Shown in pieces: positions 1 through 55,119 of a DNA stretch of 64,000 bases. How positions within the stretch are numbered: the first letter of the stretch is position 1; each line of letters begins with the position of its first letter. The position numbers were made by a program, and so were the translations under genes. The stretch is from Escherichia coli (lineage in GTDB: Bacteria; Pseudomonadota; Gammaproteobacteria; Enterobacterales; Enterobacteriaceae): assembly GCF_024700885.2 (NCBI RefSeq), contig NZ_CP117016.1, one strand, 5' to 3'. The notes beneath the pieces were generated by a model. The model worked only from the letters and a program-made list of their open reading frames with translations, had not been told where the DNA came from and ran no database searches.

Positions 1-56
1 ATGAATACGTGGTTGCTGTTGAGCATCAACTTCGTGGCTGGATGTGAGGAAGAAAA

Positions 57-761
57 ATGGCTACATCGACAGTAATTCCAGGAGATATCACCACGCTAAA
101 GGGAGATGTCAGTAAAACTAAGGAAGATATTTCCTCAATTAACGGAAAAGTATCAACGCTTCAGACTGATATGACCAGTGCAAAGCAGGATATCAGCACC
201 AGATACACAAAAACTGAAGTTGATAATAAGCTGAAAAACAAAGTGGAAGTGAACGATCTGGAAAGTGGTCGTTATGGCGGAGATTTTTATCCACTGACAG
301 GTCGTGAAGCGTTTTATTTATGGAATTTGGCCACGACTACAGCGGCGGCAAACCTTTATCTTAATCCTGACCCCGCAATTTCGTCTGTGCTGCGGTCAAC
401 ATCGTCTATCCGCTATAAACATTCAGTAGAGACAATAGATTCAGAGCACGCTGATCTCATTTTCAGGATGCGCCCTGTGTGGTACAGGTCACAATGCGAA
501 AATGACAGGCGTGACTGGGGATTCTACGGATTGATTGCCGAGGAAGTAGGAGAAATTGCCCCTCAGTTTGTACACTGGCGACCAGCTAACGAAGATGATG
601 CTCCTGAAGCTATTTCCAGCAATGGCCTTGTTGCCGAAGGTGTAATGTACGAACGTCTGGTTGTTCCACTGATTCACCATATCCAGAAGCTGACTGAAAG
701 AGTTGATGAACTTGAGTCAGAATTAAAGTTGTTATTAACTTCCCGAAGCGATATCGGATAA
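57..761 (+). CDS. Phage tail-fibre-like protein: N-terminal coiled-coil, C-terminal intramolecular-chaperone (peptidase S74-like) domain; possibly a fragment
   Basis: 234-aa ORF with heptad-like N-terminus and C-terminal GFYGLIAEEV...VMYERL segment typical of tail-fibre/endosialidase chaperone domains. In-frame stop just upstream at 45-47; another frame closes at 73-75. Confidence 0.5.
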   Translation: MATSTVIPGDITTLKGDVSKTKEDISSINGKVSTLQTDMTSAKQDISTRYTKTEVDNKLKNKVEVNDLESGRYGGDFYPLTGREAFYLWNLATTTAAANLYLNPDPAISSVLRSTSSIRYKHSVETIDSEHADLIFRMRPVWYRSQCENDRRDWGFYGLIAEEVGEIAPQFVHWRPANEDDAPEAISSNGLVAEGVMYERLVVPLIHHIQKLTERVDELESELKLLLTSRSDIG

Positions 762-771
762 AGGAGGAATA

Positions 772-1059
772 ATGGATATAACACCTTTCCTTCATGCACT
801 TTGTGCTGTGGCTGCGCAGGTACTGGTTGGTCTTTTTACCGGAAACTGGGCTTACGGGGCGATAGCCGGTTGTACGTTCTTCATTGCGCGTGAACACACC
901 CAGGCAGAATATCGCTGGATCGAAATGTTCGGGCATGGCAAGCGAATGAATATGCCGTGGTGGGGCGGTTTTGATACACGTGCATGGGATGTGGCAAGCC
1001 TGATGGATTTTGCTGTGCCGGTGGTGGCGTGTCTGCTGATCTGGCTGTTGATCCGTTAA
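772..1059 (+). CDS. Small hydrophobic membrane protein, hypothetical (phage moron-like)
   Basis: 95-aa ORF with two hydrophobic helices; strong RBS AAGGAGG 5 nt upstream of ATG; follows the tail-fibre-like ORF. Confidence 0.4.
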   Translation: MDITPFLHALCAVAAQVLVGLFTGNWAYGAIAGCTFFIAREHTQAEYRWIEMFGHGKRMNMPWWGGFDTRAWDVASLMDFAVPVVACLLIWLLIR

Positions 1060-1064
1060 ATATA

Positions 1065-1110
1065 AAAAGCCGCAGTAACTTGCCATGGCAGGATACTGCG
1101 GCTGGTTTGT
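1065..1110. terminator. Bidirectional terminator-like hairpin between convergent genes
   Basis: Inverted repeat agccgcagta / tactgcggct (1068-1077 and 1094-1103), flanked by A-run upstream and T-rich tract downstream. Confidence 0.4.
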
Positions 1111-1166
1111 GAGTTTAAATAGTGTGTTTATTGCGGTATATTTAAAGGACTTAATGGATTACATAT

Positions 1167-2543
1167 CTATGATATTCCTGAGATATCCTCTTCAAGCTCT
1201 TTTACTGATTTCGCAATTTTAAATTTAAACTTCCTCTCTATTTCACTATTGCTAAGTTTTTTTTCCTTCTCTTTACCTATCCACATAGAAACAAGTTCTC
1301 GTTTCTGAGATATATGTAAATTATCAAAGTTAGGTATGTATTTAAAAGTCTCCGCTCTACCTCTGCGGAGTTCATAGAAAGTTTTAATCAAAGACTTTGG
1401 TTTTATTTCTGATGAAAGGCCGAATCGGTGGATAAGATTATTGATAGTATGATTAACAGAGCGAAGTTGAGCTGTTGAGGTTATTTGTGAGAAGTACGAT
1501 ACCCATCCCAATCGTTTACCTTCAAACACACATCCCGTAATTCTGAGATTTAGTTTCCACTGACAATATGCAACAGCTCGTTCTTTATCACGCTTACTTT
1601 TAGCTTGTAGTAGAGCGTGCCTGTATGCAGTAAAAATCCTTGCTAAAGATGACTCAAATCTAAGAATGCTCTCATGTTTTATCAATAATTCTCGATTTTC
1701 TATGTGGTATCCCAAAAAGTTAAAACTTTCATCCAAGCTGCCTACTTTGGATTTTGAGTTCTCTTCATTTAATGGATGTGGGTTTAAATTTAATGATTGA
1801 AGCTTATCAATGATATGAGAAGCTATTTTTGTTGCTTGATATTTTGGTGTTAAAATAAGAATGTCATCAACGTATCGCATGTACCATATGTCATGCATTT
1901 TATTGATTTCATCATCAAAATTAGATAGTGATATTTCAGCTAAAATGTTTGATATCGCTAATCCCTGAGGTACCCCTCTGGTATTATTCGGGATACCTTT
2001 GCTTCCTGTTGTTCCACTTACAGTAGGCACGATTAATGATGATGTTATTAACTGTCTAATTTCTTTTTTTCTAATTTTATTTTTTATTGTATTAATTATC
2101 AATTTATGTTCAATTGAAGGATAGAAACTTTTAAGATCTATTTTTGCATATTCAGCATAAAGACTGCTGTTTAATGCTTCTTTCAATGAGTCAATTACTG
2201 TATGTGGTAGTTTTAATCTGGAGTTAGGATATATTTCCGTAAGGCATTCACAGAGAGTTCTAAGAGTAATTCTGTCCCTAGCAGTTGGTATGGAAATCTG
2301 TCTGGGTGTAGAGTTAGCGCCTTTAGATATTAATTTTTCTTTATATGCTGTAAATTTGTAATTGCCAGAGTTAACCTTTTCAAAAATGAAAGCGATCTCA
2401 TTTTTTATTGTCAAATCAAGTTTTGATGGGCGAATCCGATCTATGCCAATCGCTCCTGATTCTTTGATTTTTTCAGTGTATACTTTTAGAAGGTTTTTTT
2501 TCGAGAATGACTTTTTAAAAATTCTGCTTGCAGTCATAGTCAA
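1167..2543 (-). CDS. Reverse transcriptase, non-retron, defence-associated (UG/Abi/DRT-like); exact family unassigned
   Basis: 458-aa ORF with ordered RT motifs: PRQISIPTARDRITLR, KIDLKSFYPSI (catalytic Asp), GVPQGLAISN, YMRYVDDILIL (YxDD), FLGYHI; plus ~150-aa helical C-terminal extension. AT-rich. Confidence 0.8.
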   Translation of the reverse strand: MTMTASRIFKKSFSKKNLLKVYTEKIKESGAIGIDRIRPSKLDLTIKNEIAFIFEKVNSGNYKFTAYKEKLISKGANSTPRQISIPTARDRITLRTLCECLTEIYPNSRLKLPHTVIDSLKEALNSSLYAEYAKIDLKSFYPSIEHKLIINTIKNKIRKKEIRQLITSSLIVPTVSGTTGSKGIPNNTRGVPQGLAISNILAEISLSNFDDEINKMHDIWYMRYVDDILILTPKYQATKIASHIIDKLQSLNLNPHPLNEENSKSKVGSLDESFNFLGYHIENRELLIKHESILRFESSLARIFTAYRHALLQAKSKRDKERAVAYCQWKLNLRITGCVFEGKRLGWVSYFSQITSTAQLRSVNHTINNLIHRFGLSSEIKPKSLIKTFYELRRGRAETFKYIPNFDNLHISQKRELVSMWIGKEKEKKLSNSEIERKFKFKIAKSVKELEEDISGIS

Positions 2544-3066
2544 TCCAAAGATATATTAATGGGAGTATATAAAGGGCGGCAGTAGTAAATATTCGAAGTA
2601 ATATCCATAAAATAACAATTATTTTTTCTTTTTGTGTGGGGATCCTCGTCGTAAGTCCAACTTGAGTTACCCTTGAAATTTTATCATCTATGTCACGGTG
2701 ATTCTCAACCTCATTGAGCAAATTAAAATATTTTTCTTTCTGTTCAAGAGTTAACTGTTGACTGGTGGTAATGTCAAAATAGAGTCGCTGTAGTGCAATA
2801 TAATTCCTTCTCATGGCTATTGCTCGACCACGAAAATCTAGGTTAGATACGATCAGCGAAATACCCAGTAGGGCCACCGAAAGTATTGCCGCAACGATAT
2901 CTGTGTTATCTCCTAGAACTTTTGGAAATCGCAACGTTACAATTGAAAGTACCGCACTCAATATAGCATACCAAACGAGGATAAATTGAGAGTGCTTTTC
3001 AAGCCATTCTAGTCGATGGTGCGCTTGGATACGGGCTTTATATGTAAACCAAATATTGTCATGCAT
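2515..3066 (-). CDS. Multi-pass membrane protein with SLATT-like topology; putative effector partner of the RT
   Basis: 183-aa ORF with hydrophobic helices ILVWYAILSAVLSIVTLRF, IVAAILSVALLGISLIVSNL and C-terminal IIVILWILLRIFTTAALYILPLIYLWI. Its stop overlaps the RT start by 29 nt on the same strand. Confidence 0.5.
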   Translation of the reverse strand: MHDNIWFTYKARIQAHHRLEWLEKHSQFILVWYAILSAVLSIVTLRFPKVLGDNTDIVAAILSVALLGISLIVSNLDFRGRAIAMRRNYIALQRLYFDITTSQQLTLEQKEKYFNLLNEVENHRDIDDKISRVTQVGLTTRIPTQKEKIIVILWILLRIFTTAALYILPLIYLWIDYDCKQNF

Positions 3067-3288
3067 AAAAGATCCTTTTTAAAAGCGGAAGGGGCAGGAT
3101 ATATTGGAATCATTGAACATCCTGCCCGGCAGGATCAGTGAGCATAAGCTCAACAGTAAAATATTACTGTTCATTATCAGAGCCGCCCTTGCATGCACAA
3201 GAGGAAAAACCTGCCCCATCCTTTTGAATTATTACAATTTAATGATCTTAAAGTCAATACAAGTGAATGGTGTCCAGAGATGATGAAC

Positions 3289-3537
3289 TTAATGAACAAA
3301 CCACTCGTCAGCAGACTCCCAGGTATCTTTCAGAGTTTCCTGAACAAAAGTTTTAGCTGAATCTTTATCGGCGGTGCGCGTAACAGAAAGGCCATCGTTG
3401 CTGGTGGCTTTTACGATCACCTCTACATCGTCATAACGCTTACTGATGCGTCGAGTTAATTCTTCCTTTAACGCATCCACAGCACCGCTTGGCATTTTAG
3501 TCATTTTCTCTTTAGCTATGCAGATCTCAATACGCAT
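3289..3537 (-). CDS. DinI-family DNA-damage-inducible protein (prophage-type)
   Basis: 82-aa [12 protein letters not shown]...[11 protein letters not shown]...[16 protein letters not shown] matches the DinI family pattern. Confidence 0.7.
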
Positions 3538-3552
3538 AAAAATCCCTCTACA

Positions 3553-3596
3553 CTGTGTTTGTATACAGTGTTATTTTTAACTGTATGAATAAACAG
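3553..3596 (-). promoter_or_regulatory. Two tandem LexA (SOS) boxes upstream of the dinI-like gene
   Basis: CACTGTGTTTGTATACAGTG (3551-3570) and CTGTATGAATAAACAG (3581-3596) both fit CTGT-N8-ACAG, 16-60 bp upstream of the minus-strand start. Confidence 0.6.
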
Positions 3597-3756
3597 TGTC
3601 AATAGAACAAAGATTGCTGCATGTACAAATGTTCTTTGGCTACAAATACACCTACTGATCATGTTCTGCTATGCTCTGATACCTCCAAAATGTACAATCA
3701 GCGGCATGAATTTTTCTTTGTACATATGATTGTACATAATTAAAGAGACAACAATT

Positions 3757-5343
3757 ATGACAAGCCTTTTGGCCGCAGAGGTAGCGAAAAGAAGAACCTT
3801 TGCAATTATTTCTCACCCGGACGCCGGTAAGACTACCATCACCGAGAAGGTGCTGCTGTTCGGACAGGCCATTCAGACCGCCGGTACAGTAAAAGGCCGT
3901 GGTTCCAACCAGCACGCTAAGTCGGACTGGATGGAGATGGAAAAGCAGCGTGGGATCTCCATTACTACTTCTGTGATGCAGTTTCCGTATCACGATTGCC
4001 TGGTTAACCTGCTCGACACCCCGGGGCACGAAGACTTCTCGGAAGATACCTATCGTACCCTGACGGCGGTGGACTGCTGCCTGATGGTTATCGACGCTGC
4101 AAAAGGTGTTGAAGATCGTACCCGTAAGCTGATGGAAGTTACCCGTCTGCGCGACACGCCGATCCTCACCTTTATGAACAAACTTGACCGTGATATCCGC
4201 GACCCGATGGAGCTGCTCGATGAAGTTGAGAACGAGCTGAAAATCGGCTGCGCACCGATCACCTGGCCGATTGGCTGCGGCAAGCTGTTTAAAGGCGTTT
4301 ACCACCTTTATAAAGATGAAACCTATCTCTATCAGAGCGGTAAAGGCCACACGATTCAGGAAGTCCGCATTGTCAAAGGGCTGAATAACCCGGATCTCGA
4401 CGCTGCGGTTGGTGAAGATCTGGCACAGCAGCTACGTGACGAACTGGAACTGGTGAAAGGCGCGTCTAACGAGTTCGACAAAGAGCTGTTCCTTGCGGGC
4501 GAAATCACTCCGGTATTCTTCGGTACTGCGCTGGGTAACTTCGGCGTTGATCATATGCTGGATGGCCTGGTGGAGTGGGCCCCTGCGCCGATGCCGCGTC
4601 AGACTGATACCCGTACCGTAGAGGCGAGCGAAGACAAATTTACCGGCTTCGTATTTAAAATTCAGGCCAACATGGACCCGAAACACCGCGACCGCGTGGC
4701 GTTTATGCGCGTGGTATCCGGTAAATATGAAAAAGGCATGAAGCTGCGCCAGGTGCGCACTGCGAAAGATGTGGTGATCTCCGACGCGCTGACCTTTATG
4801 GCGGGTGACCGTTCGCACGTTGAAGAAGCGTATCCTGGCGATATCCTTGGTCTGCACAACCACGGCACCATTCAGATCGGCGACACCTTTACCCAGGGTG
4901 AGATGATGAAGTTCACCGGTATTCCGAACTTCGCACCAGAACTGTTCCGTCGTATCCGCCTGAAAGATCCGCTGAAGCAAAAACAGCTACTCAAAGGGCT
5001 GGTACAGCTTTCCGAAGAGGGCGCGGTGCAGGTGTTCCGTCCGATCTCCAACAACGATCTGATCGTTGGTGCAGTTGGTGTGCTGCAGTTTGATGTGGTG
5101 GTAGCGCGTCTGAAGAGCGAATACAACGTTGAAGCAGTGTATGAGTCAGTCAACGTTGCCACTGCCCGCTGGGTAGAATGTGCGGACGCGAAGAAATTCG
5201 AAGAGTTCAAGCGTAAGAACGAAAGCCAACTGGCGCTTGATGGCGGCGATAACCTCGCTTACATCGCTACCAGCATGGTCAACCTGCGCCTGGCGCAGGA
5301 ACGTTATCCGGACGTTCAGTTCCACCAGACCCGCGAGCATTAA
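3757..5343 (+). CDS. prfC: Peptide chain release factor 3
   Basis: ORF matches RF3 ([21 protein letters not shown] GTPase motif) essentially throughout; the first ~8 residues differ from the K-12 N-terminus as I recall it. Confidence 0.9.
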
Positions 5344-5352
5344 TTCTTGCCT

Positions 5353-5378
5353 CCAGGGCGCGGTAGCCGCTGCGCCCT
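5353..5378 (+). terminator. prfC terminator-like hairpin
   Basis: Inverted repeat cagggcgcgg...ccgctgcgccctg immediately after the prfC stop. Confidence 0.4.
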
Positions 5379-5735
5379 GTCAATTTCCCTTCCTTATTAG
5401 CCGCTTACGGAATGTTCTTAAAACATTCACTTTTGCTTATGTTTTCGCTGATCTCCCGAGCGGTTTCAAAATTGTGATCTATATTTAACAAAGTAATGAC
5501 ATTTCTGGCGGCGTTAAATACCGTTCAATGCGTAGATATCAGTATCTAAAGCCGTCGATTGTCATTCTACCGATATTAATAACTGATTCAGAGGCTGTAA
5601 TGGTCGTTATTCATCACCCATCGCTTTTGTGATGGCGACCATTGACTTCTGTAGAGGGTGAAGTCTCTCCCTATTCAGCAATGCAACCTCGTGTTGCCAG
5701 GCTCAAATTACGAGCAAACATACAGGAATAAATCG

Positions 5736-6341
5736 ATGACTATGACAAGACTGAAGATTTCGAAAACTCTGCTGGCTGTAATGTTGACCTCTGCCGTCGC
5801 GACCGGCTCTGCCTACGCGGAAAACAACGCACAGACTACCAATGAAAGCGCAGGGCAAAAAGTCGATAGCTCTATGAATAAAGTCGGTAATTTCATGGAT
5901 GACAGCGCCATCACCGCGAAAGTGAAGGCGGCGCTGGTGGATCATGACAACATCAAGAGCACCGATATCTCTGTCAAAACCGATCAAAAAGTCGTGACCC
6001 TGAGCGGTTTCGTTGAAAGCCAGGCTCAGGCCGAAGAGGCAGTGAAAGTGGCGAAAGGCGTTGAAGGGGTGACCTCTGTCAGCGACAAACTGCACGTTCG
6101 CGACGCTAAAGAAGGCTCGGTGAAGGGCTACGCGGGTGACACCGCCACCACCAGTGAAATCAAAGCCAAACTGCTGGCGGACGATATCGTCCCTTCCCGT
6201 CATGTGAAAGTTGAAACCACCGACGGCGTGGTTCAGCTCTCCGGTACCGTCGATTCCCAGGCACAGAGCGACCGTGCTGAAAGTATCGCCAAAGCGGTAG
6301 ATGGTGTGAAAAGCGTTAAAAATGATCTCAAAACTAAGTAA
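5736..6341 (+). CDS. osmY: Osmotically inducible periplasmic protein OsmY
   Basis: 201-aa product starting [28 protein letters not shown]; two BON domains. Confidence 0.9.
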
Positions 6342-39280: not shown

Positions 39281-39349
<69 letters not shown>

Positions 39350-39370
39350 CGCGTACAGGAAATACAGAAA

Positions 39371-39403
39371 AAAGCCCGCACCTGACAGTGCGGGCTTTTT
39401 TTT
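39371..39403 (+). terminator. thr attenuator terminator
   Basis: Hairpin aagcccgcac ctgacag tgcgggctt followed by tttttttt. Confidence 0.85.
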
Positions 39404-39429
39404 CGACCAAAGGTAACGAGGTAACAACC

Positions 39430-53059: not shown

Positions 53060-53147
53060 TCGCCCTATAAACGGGTAATTATACTGACACGGGCGAAGGG
53101 GTATTTCCTCTCCGCCCGTGCATTCATCTAGGGGCAATTTAAAAAAG

Positions 53148-54381: not shown

Positions 54382-54534
54382 TTACTCGGATTCGTAAGCC
54401 GTGAAAACAGCAACCTCCGTCTGGCCAGTTCGGATGTGAACCTCACAGAGGTCTTTTCTCGTTACCAGCGCCGCCACTACGGCGGTGATACAGATGACGA
54501 TCAGGGCGACAATCATCGCCTTATGCTGCTTCAT
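54382..54534 (-). CDS. hokC: Type I toxin HokC (Gef)
   Basis: 50-aa product MKQHKAMIVALIVICITAVVAALVTRKDLCEVHIRTGQTEVAVFTAYESE. Confidence 0.85.
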   Translation of the reverse strand: MKQHKAMIVALIVICITAVVAALVTRKDLCEVHIRTGQTEVAVFTAYESE

Positions 54535-54591
54535 TGCTCTCTTCTCCTTGACCTTACGGTCAGTAAGAGGCACTCTACATGTGTTCAGCAT
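54382..54591 (-). CDS. mokC: Overlapping modulator reading frame MokC
   Basis: 69-aa in-frame upstream extension MLNTCRVPLTDRKVKEKRA + HokC. Confidence 0.6.
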   Translation of the reverse strand: MLNTCRVPLTDRKVKEKRAMKQHKAMIVALIVICITAVVAALVTRKDLCEVHIRTGQTEVAVFTAYESE

Positions 54592-54650
54592 ATAGGGGGC
54601 CTCGGGTTGATGGTAAAATATCACTCGGGGCTTTTCTCTATCTGCCGTTC
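54592..54650 (+). ncRNA. sokC: Expected position of SokC antisense RNA (approximate)
   Basis: In hok/sok loci the antitoxin RNA is antisense to the mok leader; boundaries here are inferred, not read from promoter or terminator signals. Confidence 0.3.
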
Positions 54651-55119
54651 AGCTAATGCCTGAGACAGACAGCCTCAAGCACCCGCCGCTATTATATCGC
54701 TCTCTTTAACCCATTCTGTTTTATCGATTCTAATCCTGAAGACGCCTCGCATTTTAATGGCGTAATTTTTTAATGATTTAATTATTTAACTTTAATTTAT
54801 CTCTTTATCGCAATTATTGACGACAAGCTGGATTATTTTTGAAATATTGGCCTAACAAACATTGCCGACTGACAACAAATTAATTATTACTTTTCCTAAT
54901 TAATCCCTCAGAAATCCTCACCTTAAGCTATGATTATCAGGGCTTAGGGTCACTCGTGAGCGCTTACAGCCGTCAAAAACTCATCTCATCGCTGATGGCA
55001 CAAATCCTTCAATGGTTCGTAAAAAACGAATTATTCCTACACTATAATCTGATTTTAACGATGATTCGTGCGGGGTAAGATAGTAAAAACGATCTATTCA
55101 CCTGAAAGAGAAATAAAAA

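Follow-up and report, generated by a model that had tools for sequence, protein, structure and literature searches.

A Prophage Locus Adjoining prfC in Escherichia coli Very Probably Encodes a Complete DRT10 (UG17) Anti-Phage System, a Natural Allele of Eco3DRT10

Identity and Extent of the Module

Positions 1167-3257 (minus strand) of the window, by which we mean the whole 64-kb stretch of DNA analysed, very probably constitute a complete DRT10 (UG17) anti-phage system, namely an allele of Eco3DRT10 located at the attR-side end of the prfC prophage. The unit would consist, in this order, of a promoter, a 137-nt structured non-coding RNA (ncRNA), a SLATT_5 membrane protein and an overlapping reverse transcriptase (RT) of 456 aa. 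The pairing of a UG17 RT with a SLATT protein corresponds to DRT10, and defence against phages has been demonstrated for such systems (Tang et al., 2025, PMC12632851), also in a later work (Sanchez-Nieto et al., 2026, bioRxiv 10.64898/2026.04.29.721553). The interest of DRT10 resides in a compact bacterial RT that copies a short RNA template into telomere-like tandem repeats, and for which kinship with telomerase has been proposed. The locus described here adds nothing new to DRT10: it represents a naturally occurring allele of a model system already published, and its RNA component is identical. Its usefulness in practice lies in annotation.

The original prediction, made from the nucleotide sequence alone, described a two-gene module formed by the ORFs 1167-2543 and 2515-3066 (both on the minus strand), interpreted it as a stand-alone defence RT of the UG/DRT lineage with a membrane partner, and considered that it might be undescribed. 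Both ORFs are present in the ORF listing, and the full-length match to PADLOC RT_UG17 agrees with the proposed lineage. The two genes are thus correct, but the module was not complete as delimited, the promoter and the 137-nt ncRNA lying upstream, up to ~3257, having been overlooked. Neither is the locus undescribed: the RT is UG17, its partner SLATT_5, the pair DRT10 and the locus an Eco3DRT10 allele. Such loci appear novel to a reader of the sequence because PGAP labels the products only as “reverse transcriptase domain-containing protein” and “SLATT domain-containing protein”, and because the ncRNA is missing in Rfam 15. The higher AT content with respect to prfC was also rightly perceived, with a G+C fraction of 0.30-0.37 throughout the module vs. 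0.53-0.54 for prfC.

Comparison With Eco3DRT10 and Allelic Variation

The RT of Eco3DRT10 is OKX54664.1, from E. coli 703491 (contig LRLX01000203.1), and this system has been studied through defence experiments, ncRNA RIP-seq, in vitro reconstitution, and S456A and A/A′ mutants (Tang et al., 2025). The source contig was retrieved (as L035) for comparison. It shows the same gene order as the window (osmY, prfC, dinI, SLATT, RT, a 95-aa ORF and tail fibre), and the ncRNA, together with the whole 222-nt intergenic region including the promoter, is 100% identical in both. The template (CAAUGAUUC followed by CAAU), the YVDD motif, the C-terminal Ser456 and the 23-nt gene overlap are likewise shared. 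Over 1167-3288 the two sequences differ at 5 nt, which leaves 453/456 RT residues (99.3%) and 182/183 SLATT residues identical; the differences carried by the window are A94T, A150T and R370H in the RT, R109Q in the SLATT protein, and one synonymous change. Q109, the SLATT residue of the window, is the common state among homologs.

Residue 94 of the RT, on the other hand, is Thr in the window and Ala in 13/13 other homologs, including those of 62% identity, and A94T may confer a reduced or altered activity on the window allele. Could the locus then be a DRT10 whose activity was lost or changed through A94T plus the other substitutions? Besides the invariance of A94, this reading can invoke the rarity of the exact RT sequence, a minor allele found on 13 contigs, vs. 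the 970 contigs that carry the exact sequence of its SLATT partner. We regard it as very unlikely, however, as both ORFs are intact, no change affects the YVDD motif, the C-terminal Ser, the promoter or any part of the ncRNA, and the replacement of Ala by Thr is conservative. Furthermore, the allele persists, being carried at 100% identity by at least four complete genomes that originate from different studies. Decay might also be expected if an active SLATT protein stood beside a dead RT. Within the preferred reading, that of a complete Eco3DRT10 allele, the A94T variant offers a natural test of an RT position that does not vary otherwise.

Promoter, Non-coding RNA and Template

A sigma-70-type promoter of the ncRNA is predicted by consensus match at 3228-3257 (minus strand; TTGACT-18 nt-AATAAT, with a TG before the -10 element), scoring 10/12 in a consensus scan. 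It is the sole promoter-like site near the SLATT and RT genes; the -10 hexamer ends 7 nt ahead of the inferred 5′ end of the ncRNA, and both the -35 TTGACT and the -10 region are retained in homologs whose RT is 78-83% identical.

The ncRNA itself (137 nt; 3085-3221, minus strand) was delimited by transferring the published length and numbering, in which C116 and A117 are the first bases of A′. So placed, it begins at the first G of the basal stem (SL1) and stops 2 nt beyond the 3′ arm of that stem, which encloses four internal hairpins and a template loop that is single-stranded. Its predicted fold reaches a minimum free energy of -53.7 kcal/mol (z = -3.7). RNAalifold recovered five helices from 13 homologs, with compensatory pairs at 8 of 35; 99.1% of the alignment cells are paired vs. 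47-56% in slid controls, and none of 500 shuffles reached the observed pairing or covariation score. Covariation thus supports the structure. A covariance model built from divergent homologs only, when searched against the 64 kb, matched 3222-3085 on the minus strand (140.1 bits, E = 4.6e-34), the next match having E = 0.98. Rfam 15 returned nothing at the locus (positions 1-6000 at E ≤ 1; whole window at gathering thresholds), and the DRT10 ncRNA has no entry in that release.

SL5, a G+C-rich hairpin (AUCCUGC-CGG-GCAGGAU; 3119-3135, minus strand), is found in the folds directly 5′ of the template loop, and in the alignment all five of its pairs are 100% paired, one of them being compensatory. 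In Eco3DRT10, SL5 acts as the 5′ template boundary element, and scrambling it abolished the repeat products (Tang et al., 2025). The template, recognized by the published motif, starts 3 nt past the SL5 stem and shows an A-B-A′ arrangement (3103-3115, minus strand), with CAAU as A (3115-3112), GAUUC as B (3111-3107) and CAAU again as A′ (3106-3103). The 9-nt template and the CAAU realignment repeat that follows are the same as published; in DNA form, CAATGATTC plus CAAT is the exact reverse complement of the published Eco3DRT10 cDNA motif plus the 4-nt repeat. This A-B-A′ sequence occurs once in the 64-kb window, and the A-B-A′ pattern, with a period of 9-10 nt, is found at the same loop position in 12/12 homologs despite sequence changes.

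The Reverse Transcriptase

The RT gene (1167-2537, minus strand; 456 aa) was delimited on the basis of PADLOC RT_UG17, Pfam RVT_1 and the start chosen by PGAP. The start codon is most likely the ATG at 2537 rather than the TTG at 2543: this is the choice of PGAP, all close homologs begin with MTA…, and the 458-aa annotation has been described as bearing two spurious N-terminal residues, with the consequent correction of the numbering from S458 to S456 (Tang et al., 2025). From this start, the C-terminal residue becomes the published priming Ser456, and the overlap with the SLATT gene amounts to 23 nt, not to the 29 nt first proposed.

The profile-HMM classification suggested along with the original prediction places RT_UG17 on top (525.7 bits, E = 2.1e-158, model positions 1-429 of 429), the second-best PADLOC family being Drt3a (127 bits), with the retron RT models far below UG17. 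On these profile matches, the RT is a member of the UG17 clade of class 2 UG/Abi reverse transcriptases. The motifs reported earlier do appear in order, at residues 80, 134, 193, 224 (YVDD) and 276 in the 458-aa numbering. As Pfam RVT_1 spans residues 74-281, the C-terminal extension has ~175 aa, so that the helical extension noticed after the motifs, then estimated at ~150 aa, is indeed present. The catalytic YVDD codons (1863-1874, minus strand; residues 222-225 in the 456-aa numbering) are invariant in 13 homologs, and a YVAA mutant of Eco3DRT10 abolished defence (Tang et al., 2025). The protein ends in …EEDISGIS; the codon of Ser456, the published protein-priming residue, lies at 1170-1172 (minus strand), and this terminal Ser, within …DISG[I/V/F]S, is common to 13/13 homologs down to 62% identity. 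In Eco3DRT10, S456A caused the loss of both cDNA synthesis and defence (Tang et al., 2025).

Modules formed by an RT and a membrane effector with two transmembrane (2TM) helices exist among retrons, and the locus could be imagined as one of them, its RT producing msDNA on a neighbouring msr-msd RNA and its 2TM effector corresponding to that of retron Ec48/Eco6. The RT does give weak matches to retron models (NCBIfam retron_St85_RT, 58.3 bits; PADLOC RT_I-B, E = 8e-13), but the first of them falls far under its cut-off of 235, and RT_UG17 scores 525.7 bits. In addition, the RT bears the ~175-aa extension terminating in the priming Ser, the components follow one another as ncRNA, SLATT and RT, and the ncRNA has the DRT10 architecture with a 9-nt A-B-A′ template and lacks an msr-msd flanked by inverted repeats; the Rfam scan found no retron RNA. 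A retron is therefore highly improbable. There is next to no chance, either, that the gene encodes the RT/maturase of a group II intron, be it whole or a remnant. The match to NCBIfam TIGR04416 (group_II_RT_mat; E = 7e-41, 140.5 bits) reflects general RT-domain similarity and remains below the curated cut-off of 300; no intron RNA was found in Rfam (1-6000 at E ≤ 1; whole window at gathering thresholds), Pfam finds neither a maturase nor an endonuclease domain, and the RT gene overlaps the SLATT gene. The view that the locus is neither a retron nor a group II intron, already expressed in the original prediction, is upheld by model scores under the cut-offs and by the lack of such RNAs in Rfam, in favor of the DRT10 assignment.

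The SLATT Membrane Protein

Upstream of the RT, and overlapping it, is the gene of the membrane effector (2515-3066, minus strand; 183 aa), with two transmembrane helices and a C-terminal one, assigned to SLATT_5 by PADLOC, NCBIfam and Pfam. The three hydrophobic helices anticipated in this protein correspond to hydropathy segments at residues ~25-48, 54-79 and 147-175. A SLATT-type effector had been suggested, and its classification against such profiles proposed: PADLOC RTasSLATT (E = 7.9e-57), NCBIfam SLATT_5 (132.9 bits, above the curated cut-off of 60) and Pfam SLATT_5 (PF18160; E = 5.5e-28) all match. The translational coupling of both genes, claimed at the outset, is consistent with the overlap observed here (23 nt) and in every homolog examined, with a range of 2-23 nt. 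Deletion of the SLATT gene abolished defence by Eco3DRT10 (Tang et al., 2025).

Since the membrane protein is small, multi-pass and prophage-borne, it could also be the product of a lysis or holin-type gene of the phage lying next to an RT by chance, but this reading is refuted by the SLATT family assignment, full-length and RT-associated, and by the conserved coupling of 2-23 nt. Its position at the tail-fibre/att end of the prophage, and not in a lysis cassette, and the loss of Eco3DRT10 defence on SLATT deletion also speak against it.

Genomic Context and Distribution

The prophage location is supported by E. coli genome annotations and by IMG/VR contigs. In one annotated genome of 100% identity, the DRT10 module is flanked by the genes of a tail fiber domain protein and of a DinI-like protein, where a lambdoid prophage adjoining prfC ends; the tail-fibre-like and dinI-like neighbours had already been read from the sequence of the window. 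The locus is present in 187 of 5,426 complete E. coli genomes (~3.4%). When the cassette was compared by megablast with the INPHARED phage collection, no match appeared, and hence no deposited phage genome in it at about 85% identity or above.

Lambdoid prophages integrated at two different sites, prfC and yecD, carry the dinI-like gene and DRT10 together as a block. LexA control of the dinI-like gene, also part of the original prediction, appears plausible from two CTGT-N8-ACAG boxes of LexA type, found by sequence match upstream of it (3581-3596 and 3553-3568). This gene lies upstream of the module on the same strand, and no intrinsic terminator is predicted between its stop (3289) and the ncRNA promoter (3257). 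Transcription might conceivably read through from it into the ncRNA-SLATT-RT unit; if so, SOS or prophage induction would raise DRT10 expression, and a DNA-damage input would join the response to ssDNA metabolism (SbcB, SSB-like triggers). We consider this unlikely. A dinI gene adjacent to DRT10 is found only among close relatives and is absent upstream of the divergent loci with 62-83% RT identity, which weakens a functional link between dinI and DRT10, retained here as a low-probability idea. In any case, this end of a lambdoid prophage commonly bears a dinI-like gene, an observation that counts against read-through.

Proposed Mechanism

Phage defence dependent on the RT, the ncRNA and SLATT has been shown for Eco3DRT10 (Tang et al., 2025) and for the E3659 system (Sanchez-Nieto et al., 2026), and tandem-repeat ssDNA synthesis covalently linked to the RT for Eco3DRT10 (Tang et al., 2025). 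On the basis of what was shown for Eco3DRT10, we infer the same course of events for the window allele. The RT would bind the ncRNA, use the hydroxyl of its C-terminal Ser456 as the primer for DNA synthesis, and copy the 9-nt template in the loop just 3′ of SL5. Segments A and B would template the 9-nt cDNA repeat 5′-GAATCATTG-3′, after which the nascent cDNA would unpair and re-anneal to the downstream CAAU (A′). Such telomerase-like cycling would yield kilobase-long single-stranded GAATCATTG tandem repeats covalently attached to the RT. Defence would require SLATT and the ncRNA as well as a functional RT active site. Control of the pore-forming SLATT protein would presumably fall to the repeat ssDNA, and infection would then lead to membrane damage and an abortive outcome. 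The infection signal may be an altered level or form of the cDNA, set by factors that handle ssDNA, host ExoI/SbcB and phage SSB-like proteins among them.

The published data show that cDNA is made constitutively and that, in a related homolog, control is exerted by host ExoI (SbcB) and by an SSB-like protein of the phage; the sensing of infection by the RT, as first suggested, finds no support. The accompanying guess, that a cDNA product governs the membrane effector, coincides with the working model of both DRT10 papers, and the same coupling between cDNA and SLATT would hold for the window allele. The two papers disagree on the direction of the response: upon infection, the cDNA of Eco3DRT10 falls (Tang et al., 2025), whereas that of the E3659 system rises (Sanchez-Nieto et al., 2026).

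Comparison With Other Known Systems

Besides Eco3DRT10, the locus resembles E3659 DRT10/UG17-A (Escherichia sp.), with the same layout of ncRNA, SLATT_5 and RT, overlapping genes, an ncRNA of similar size (143 nt) with a basal stem and internal stem-loops, and tandem-repeat cDNA made from a template with flanking short repeats. Its repeat, however, has 7 nt (AGTAATA, from an ACU…ACU template) vs. 9 nt at the window locus, and its RT is shorter (1338-nt gene). The dependence on SbcB and the SSB-like trigger were shown for this UG17-A homolog (Sanchez-Nieto et al., 2026), and not for the Eco3 type. The locus may belong to the UG17-A subtype, with which the order SLATT then RT, the gene overlap and the E. 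coli (Pseudomonadota) host agree; that subtype is further characterized by an ncRNA and an RT clade of its own (Sanchez-Nieto et al., 2026).

DRT9 (a UG28 RT plus an ncRNA) also has a class 2 UG RT producing protein-primed repetitive ssDNA, and the overall architecture of its ncRNA is similar to that of DRT10 (Tang et al., 2025). In contrast, DRT9 makes poly-dA from a U-tract, primes from a tyrosine and needs no SLATT partner, and the PADLOC Drt9 model gives the window RT only 69.8 bits vs. 525.7 for UG17.

Retrons of the Ec48/Eco6 type, in which an RT, an ncRNA and a membrane effector act in abortive infection, resemble the locus as prophage- or island-borne assemblies of these three components. 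They differ in RT clade, in their msDNA product, in RNA priming from a 2′-OH and in gene order, and their models stay under the cut-offs for the window RT.

Finally, telomerase (TERT plus telomerase RNA) works in a manner similar to DRT10: in both, a structured RNA encoded apart from the RT contains a short template, a helix on the 5′ side marks the template boundary, and realignment on a repeat allows processive repeat addition. Telomerase, unlike DRT10, takes the 3′ end of a chromosome as primer instead of a protein serine, TERT, with additional domains, is ~2.5 times larger, and the biological role is another; homology between DRT10 and telomerase is a published proposal.

The RT and its membrane partner

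Two overlapping ORFs lie on the minus strand of the window, one encoding a 458-aa RT (1167-2543) and the other a 183-aa membrane protein (2515-3066), as described in the original prediction. All RT motifs occur in the predicted order, YVDD falling at residue 224 in the 458-aa ORF, and Pfam RVT_1 spans residues 74-281, beyond which a long C-terminal extension remains; PGAP starts the RT at an ATG (position 2537), for a length of 456 aa. The 183-aa protein contains three hydrophobic segments (approximately 25-48, 54-79 and 147-175). The module is AT-rich as had been noted, with a G+C content of 0.30-0.37 vs. 0.53-0.54 for prfC.

The pair had been proposed as a candidate defense system that could not be assigned to a named family from sequence alone and might be undescribed; the functional guess was good, but the novelty did not hold. 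By profile-HMM classification the RT belongs to RT_UG17, covering the whole PADLOC model (525.7 bits, E=2.1e-158; next family Drt3a, 127 bits), and the membrane protein to SLATT_5 (NCBIfam, 132.9 bits, cut-off 60; Pfam SLATT_5 also matches), the latter also matching the PADLOC “RT-associated SLATT” model (E=7.9e-57). A full-text literature search on UG17 and SLATT retrieved two mechanistic papers naming the system DRT10 (Tang et al., 2025, PMC12632851; Sanchez-Nieto et al., 2026, bioRxiv 10.64898/2026.04.29.721553). YVDD and the terminal ...DISG[I/V/F]S are invariant among homologs. A group II intron RT (140 bits, curated cut-off 300) and a retron RT (58 bits, curated cut-off 235), both rightly discounted in the prediction, are matched far below threshold and only through the shared RT fold.

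The ncRNA and its template

DRT10 is a three-part system, in which a 137-143-nt ncRNA directly upstream of SLATT is essential for defense (PMC12632851; bioRxiv 10.64898/2026.04.29.721553). The locus had been correctly delimited in the prediction, but this RNA was missed. We place it at 3085-3221 (-), its ends set by the published numbering (A′ realignment repeat beginning at C116, RNA length 137 nt): nt 1 (3221) is the G that opens the basal stem, 7 nt past the -10 hexamer of a promoter-like site matching the consensus (TTGACT-18-AATAAT, 3257-3228, -), and nt 137 (3085) lies 2 nt past that stem. The predicted fold (-53.7 kcal/mol, z=-3.7) has a basal stem of 12 bp that encloses four hairpins, as well as an unpaired loop holding CAAUGAUUC followed by CAAU, the reverse complement of the 9-nt cDNA repeat GAATCATTG of Eco3DRT10, the published model system, plus its 4-nt A′. 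Since Rfam 15 holds no family for this RNA and PGAP annotates nothing at 3085-3221 (-), the three-part system appears as two generic genes in standard annotation.

Conservation was assessed in 31 IMG/VR loci (RTs 62-100% identical), whose upstream regions gave 13 distinct sequences. RNAalifold recovered the five helices, left the template loop unpaired and showed compensatory changes in 8 of 35 pairs (0-3 in controls with partners slid); 99.1% of cells paired, vs. 47-56% in the slid controls. A covariance model trained solely on divergent homologs (RT 62-83% identical) gave a single significant match in the 64-kb window, 3222-3085 (-), at 140.1 bits (E=4.6e-34; next E=0.98). All homologs keep the A-B-A′ pattern, in which A-B is copied and A′ serves realignment, but with differing sequences (CAACGGUUC, CAACGAUUC, CAAAGUAUC and the 10-nt CAAUAGUUUC), and in several related loci A and A′ have just 3 nt (CAA) in common. 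Changed templates obeying the same rule are found in loci L004 and L019-L030 (e.g., L027:2308-2440), which should therefore yield different repeat cDNAs.

Transcription and proposed mechanism

SLATT starts 19 nt downstream of the ncRNA, and the promoter scan detected no promoter-like site between them or elsewhere nearby besides the ncRNA promoter, from which all three parts are probably transcribed. Read-through from the dinI-like gene is possible; within 3067-3289 (-), no intrinsic terminator is predicted between its stop and the ncRNA promoter.

The Eco3DRT10 RT binds the ncRNA, primes from Ser456, copies A-B and then realigns on A′, constitutively producing kilobase-long tandem-repeat ssDNA; defense depends on the RT active site, on every stem-loop and on SLATT (PMC12632851). 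Judging from its near-identity, the window allele would likewise bind the ncRNA, prime from Ser456, copy A-B, realign on A′ and produce such ssDNA constitutively, with the same requirements for defense. The cDNA would then control SLATT, in a manner on which the papers differ: one proposes that SLATT is held back by the cDNA, whose level drops on infection, the other that cDNA accumulation activates SLATT. Toxicity of the related homolog E3659 is suppressed by host ExoI/SbcB, and its activation needs a phage SSB-like protein (bioRxiv 10.64898/2026.04.29.721553).

Genomic context and distribution

The complete E. coli genome FDAARGOS_536, 100% identical to the window over 1100-3300, carries a lambdoid prophage (tape measure, L, C40 peptidase, J, Lom, tail fiber) with the module at its end, in the order “tail fiber domain-containing protein,” small hypothetical gene, module, DinI-like gene and prfC, which bears out the predicted placement. 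The dinI-like gene (3289-3537, -) is preceded by two LexA-type boxes (CTGT-N8-ACAG; 3553-3568 and 3581-3596, -) flanking or overlapping a TTGACA -35 hexamer at 3602, supporting the proposed LexA control. The window's tail-fiber gene (57-761) matches Peptidase_S74 weakly. Between it and the RT, a 95-aa hydrophobic ORF (772-1059, +), annotated as hypothetical and kept in the Eco3DRT10 source contig, had no match in PADLOC or NCBIfam.

The prophage/host junction falls inside the 5′ end of prfC (3757-3805, +). The first ~14 codons of prfC and its promoter region differ from those of a prophage-free E. coli (which has MTLSPYLQEVAKRR), DNA identity starts again at ...ATTATTTCTCACC, and core-genome megablast matches begin at ~3777; the prophage seems to supply a replacement prfC 5′ end and promoter. 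Elsewhere the window consists of ordinary E. coli core genome, with Rfam matches to the thr operon leader (39285-39404, +), the tpke11 sRNA (53070-53147, +) and the sok (CssrC) antitoxin RNA (54532-54684, -); a search for tRNA genes in the window found none.

Of 5,426 complete E. coli genomes, 187 carry the cassette at ≥90% identity, in every case chromosomally. It adjoins prfC, as here, in 72; elsewhere it occupies the same tail-fiber/att end in a different lambdoid prophage, located at yecD. One such yecD-adjoining prophage, in E. coli SCAID WND1-2021 (L033:7460-8362), carries a 94% identical cassette, a frameshifted dinI-like gene, and a macro domain-containing protein gene between the tail fiber and tail fiber assembly genes. 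At megablast sensitivity, the cassette was not found in deposited phage genomes.

Relation to Eco3DRT10

Eco3DRT10 was the main model among the three E. coli systems that Tang et al. put to the test; its RT, OKX54664.1, comes from contig LRLX01000203.1 of E. coli 703491 (PMC12632851). According to their methods, OKX54664.1 has two spurious N-terminal residues, so that S458 becomes S456 (PMC12632851), a discrepancy equal to the TTG-vs.-ATG difference in the window. The source contig, retrieved via the exact Eco3 SLATT sequence, shares the gene order of the window: osmY, prfC, dinI, SLATT, RT, the 95-aa ORF and a 234-aa tail-fiber protein. Compared base by base over 1167-3288, the two differ at 5 positions, the 222-nt dinI-SLATT intergenic region being identical; the amino-acid substitutions are A94T, A150T and R370H in the RT and R109Q in SLATT. 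At RT codon 94 (2256-2258, -), within the conserved ...ARDRITLRALCE... segment, the window has Thr vs. Ala in 13/13 other homologs, down to 62% identity. The exact RT is a minor allele (13 contigs) vs. the common SLATT allele (970). As far as its sequence indicates, the window allele is likely active, and the locus is an already-known, real and intact defense locus of the Eco3DRT10 type.
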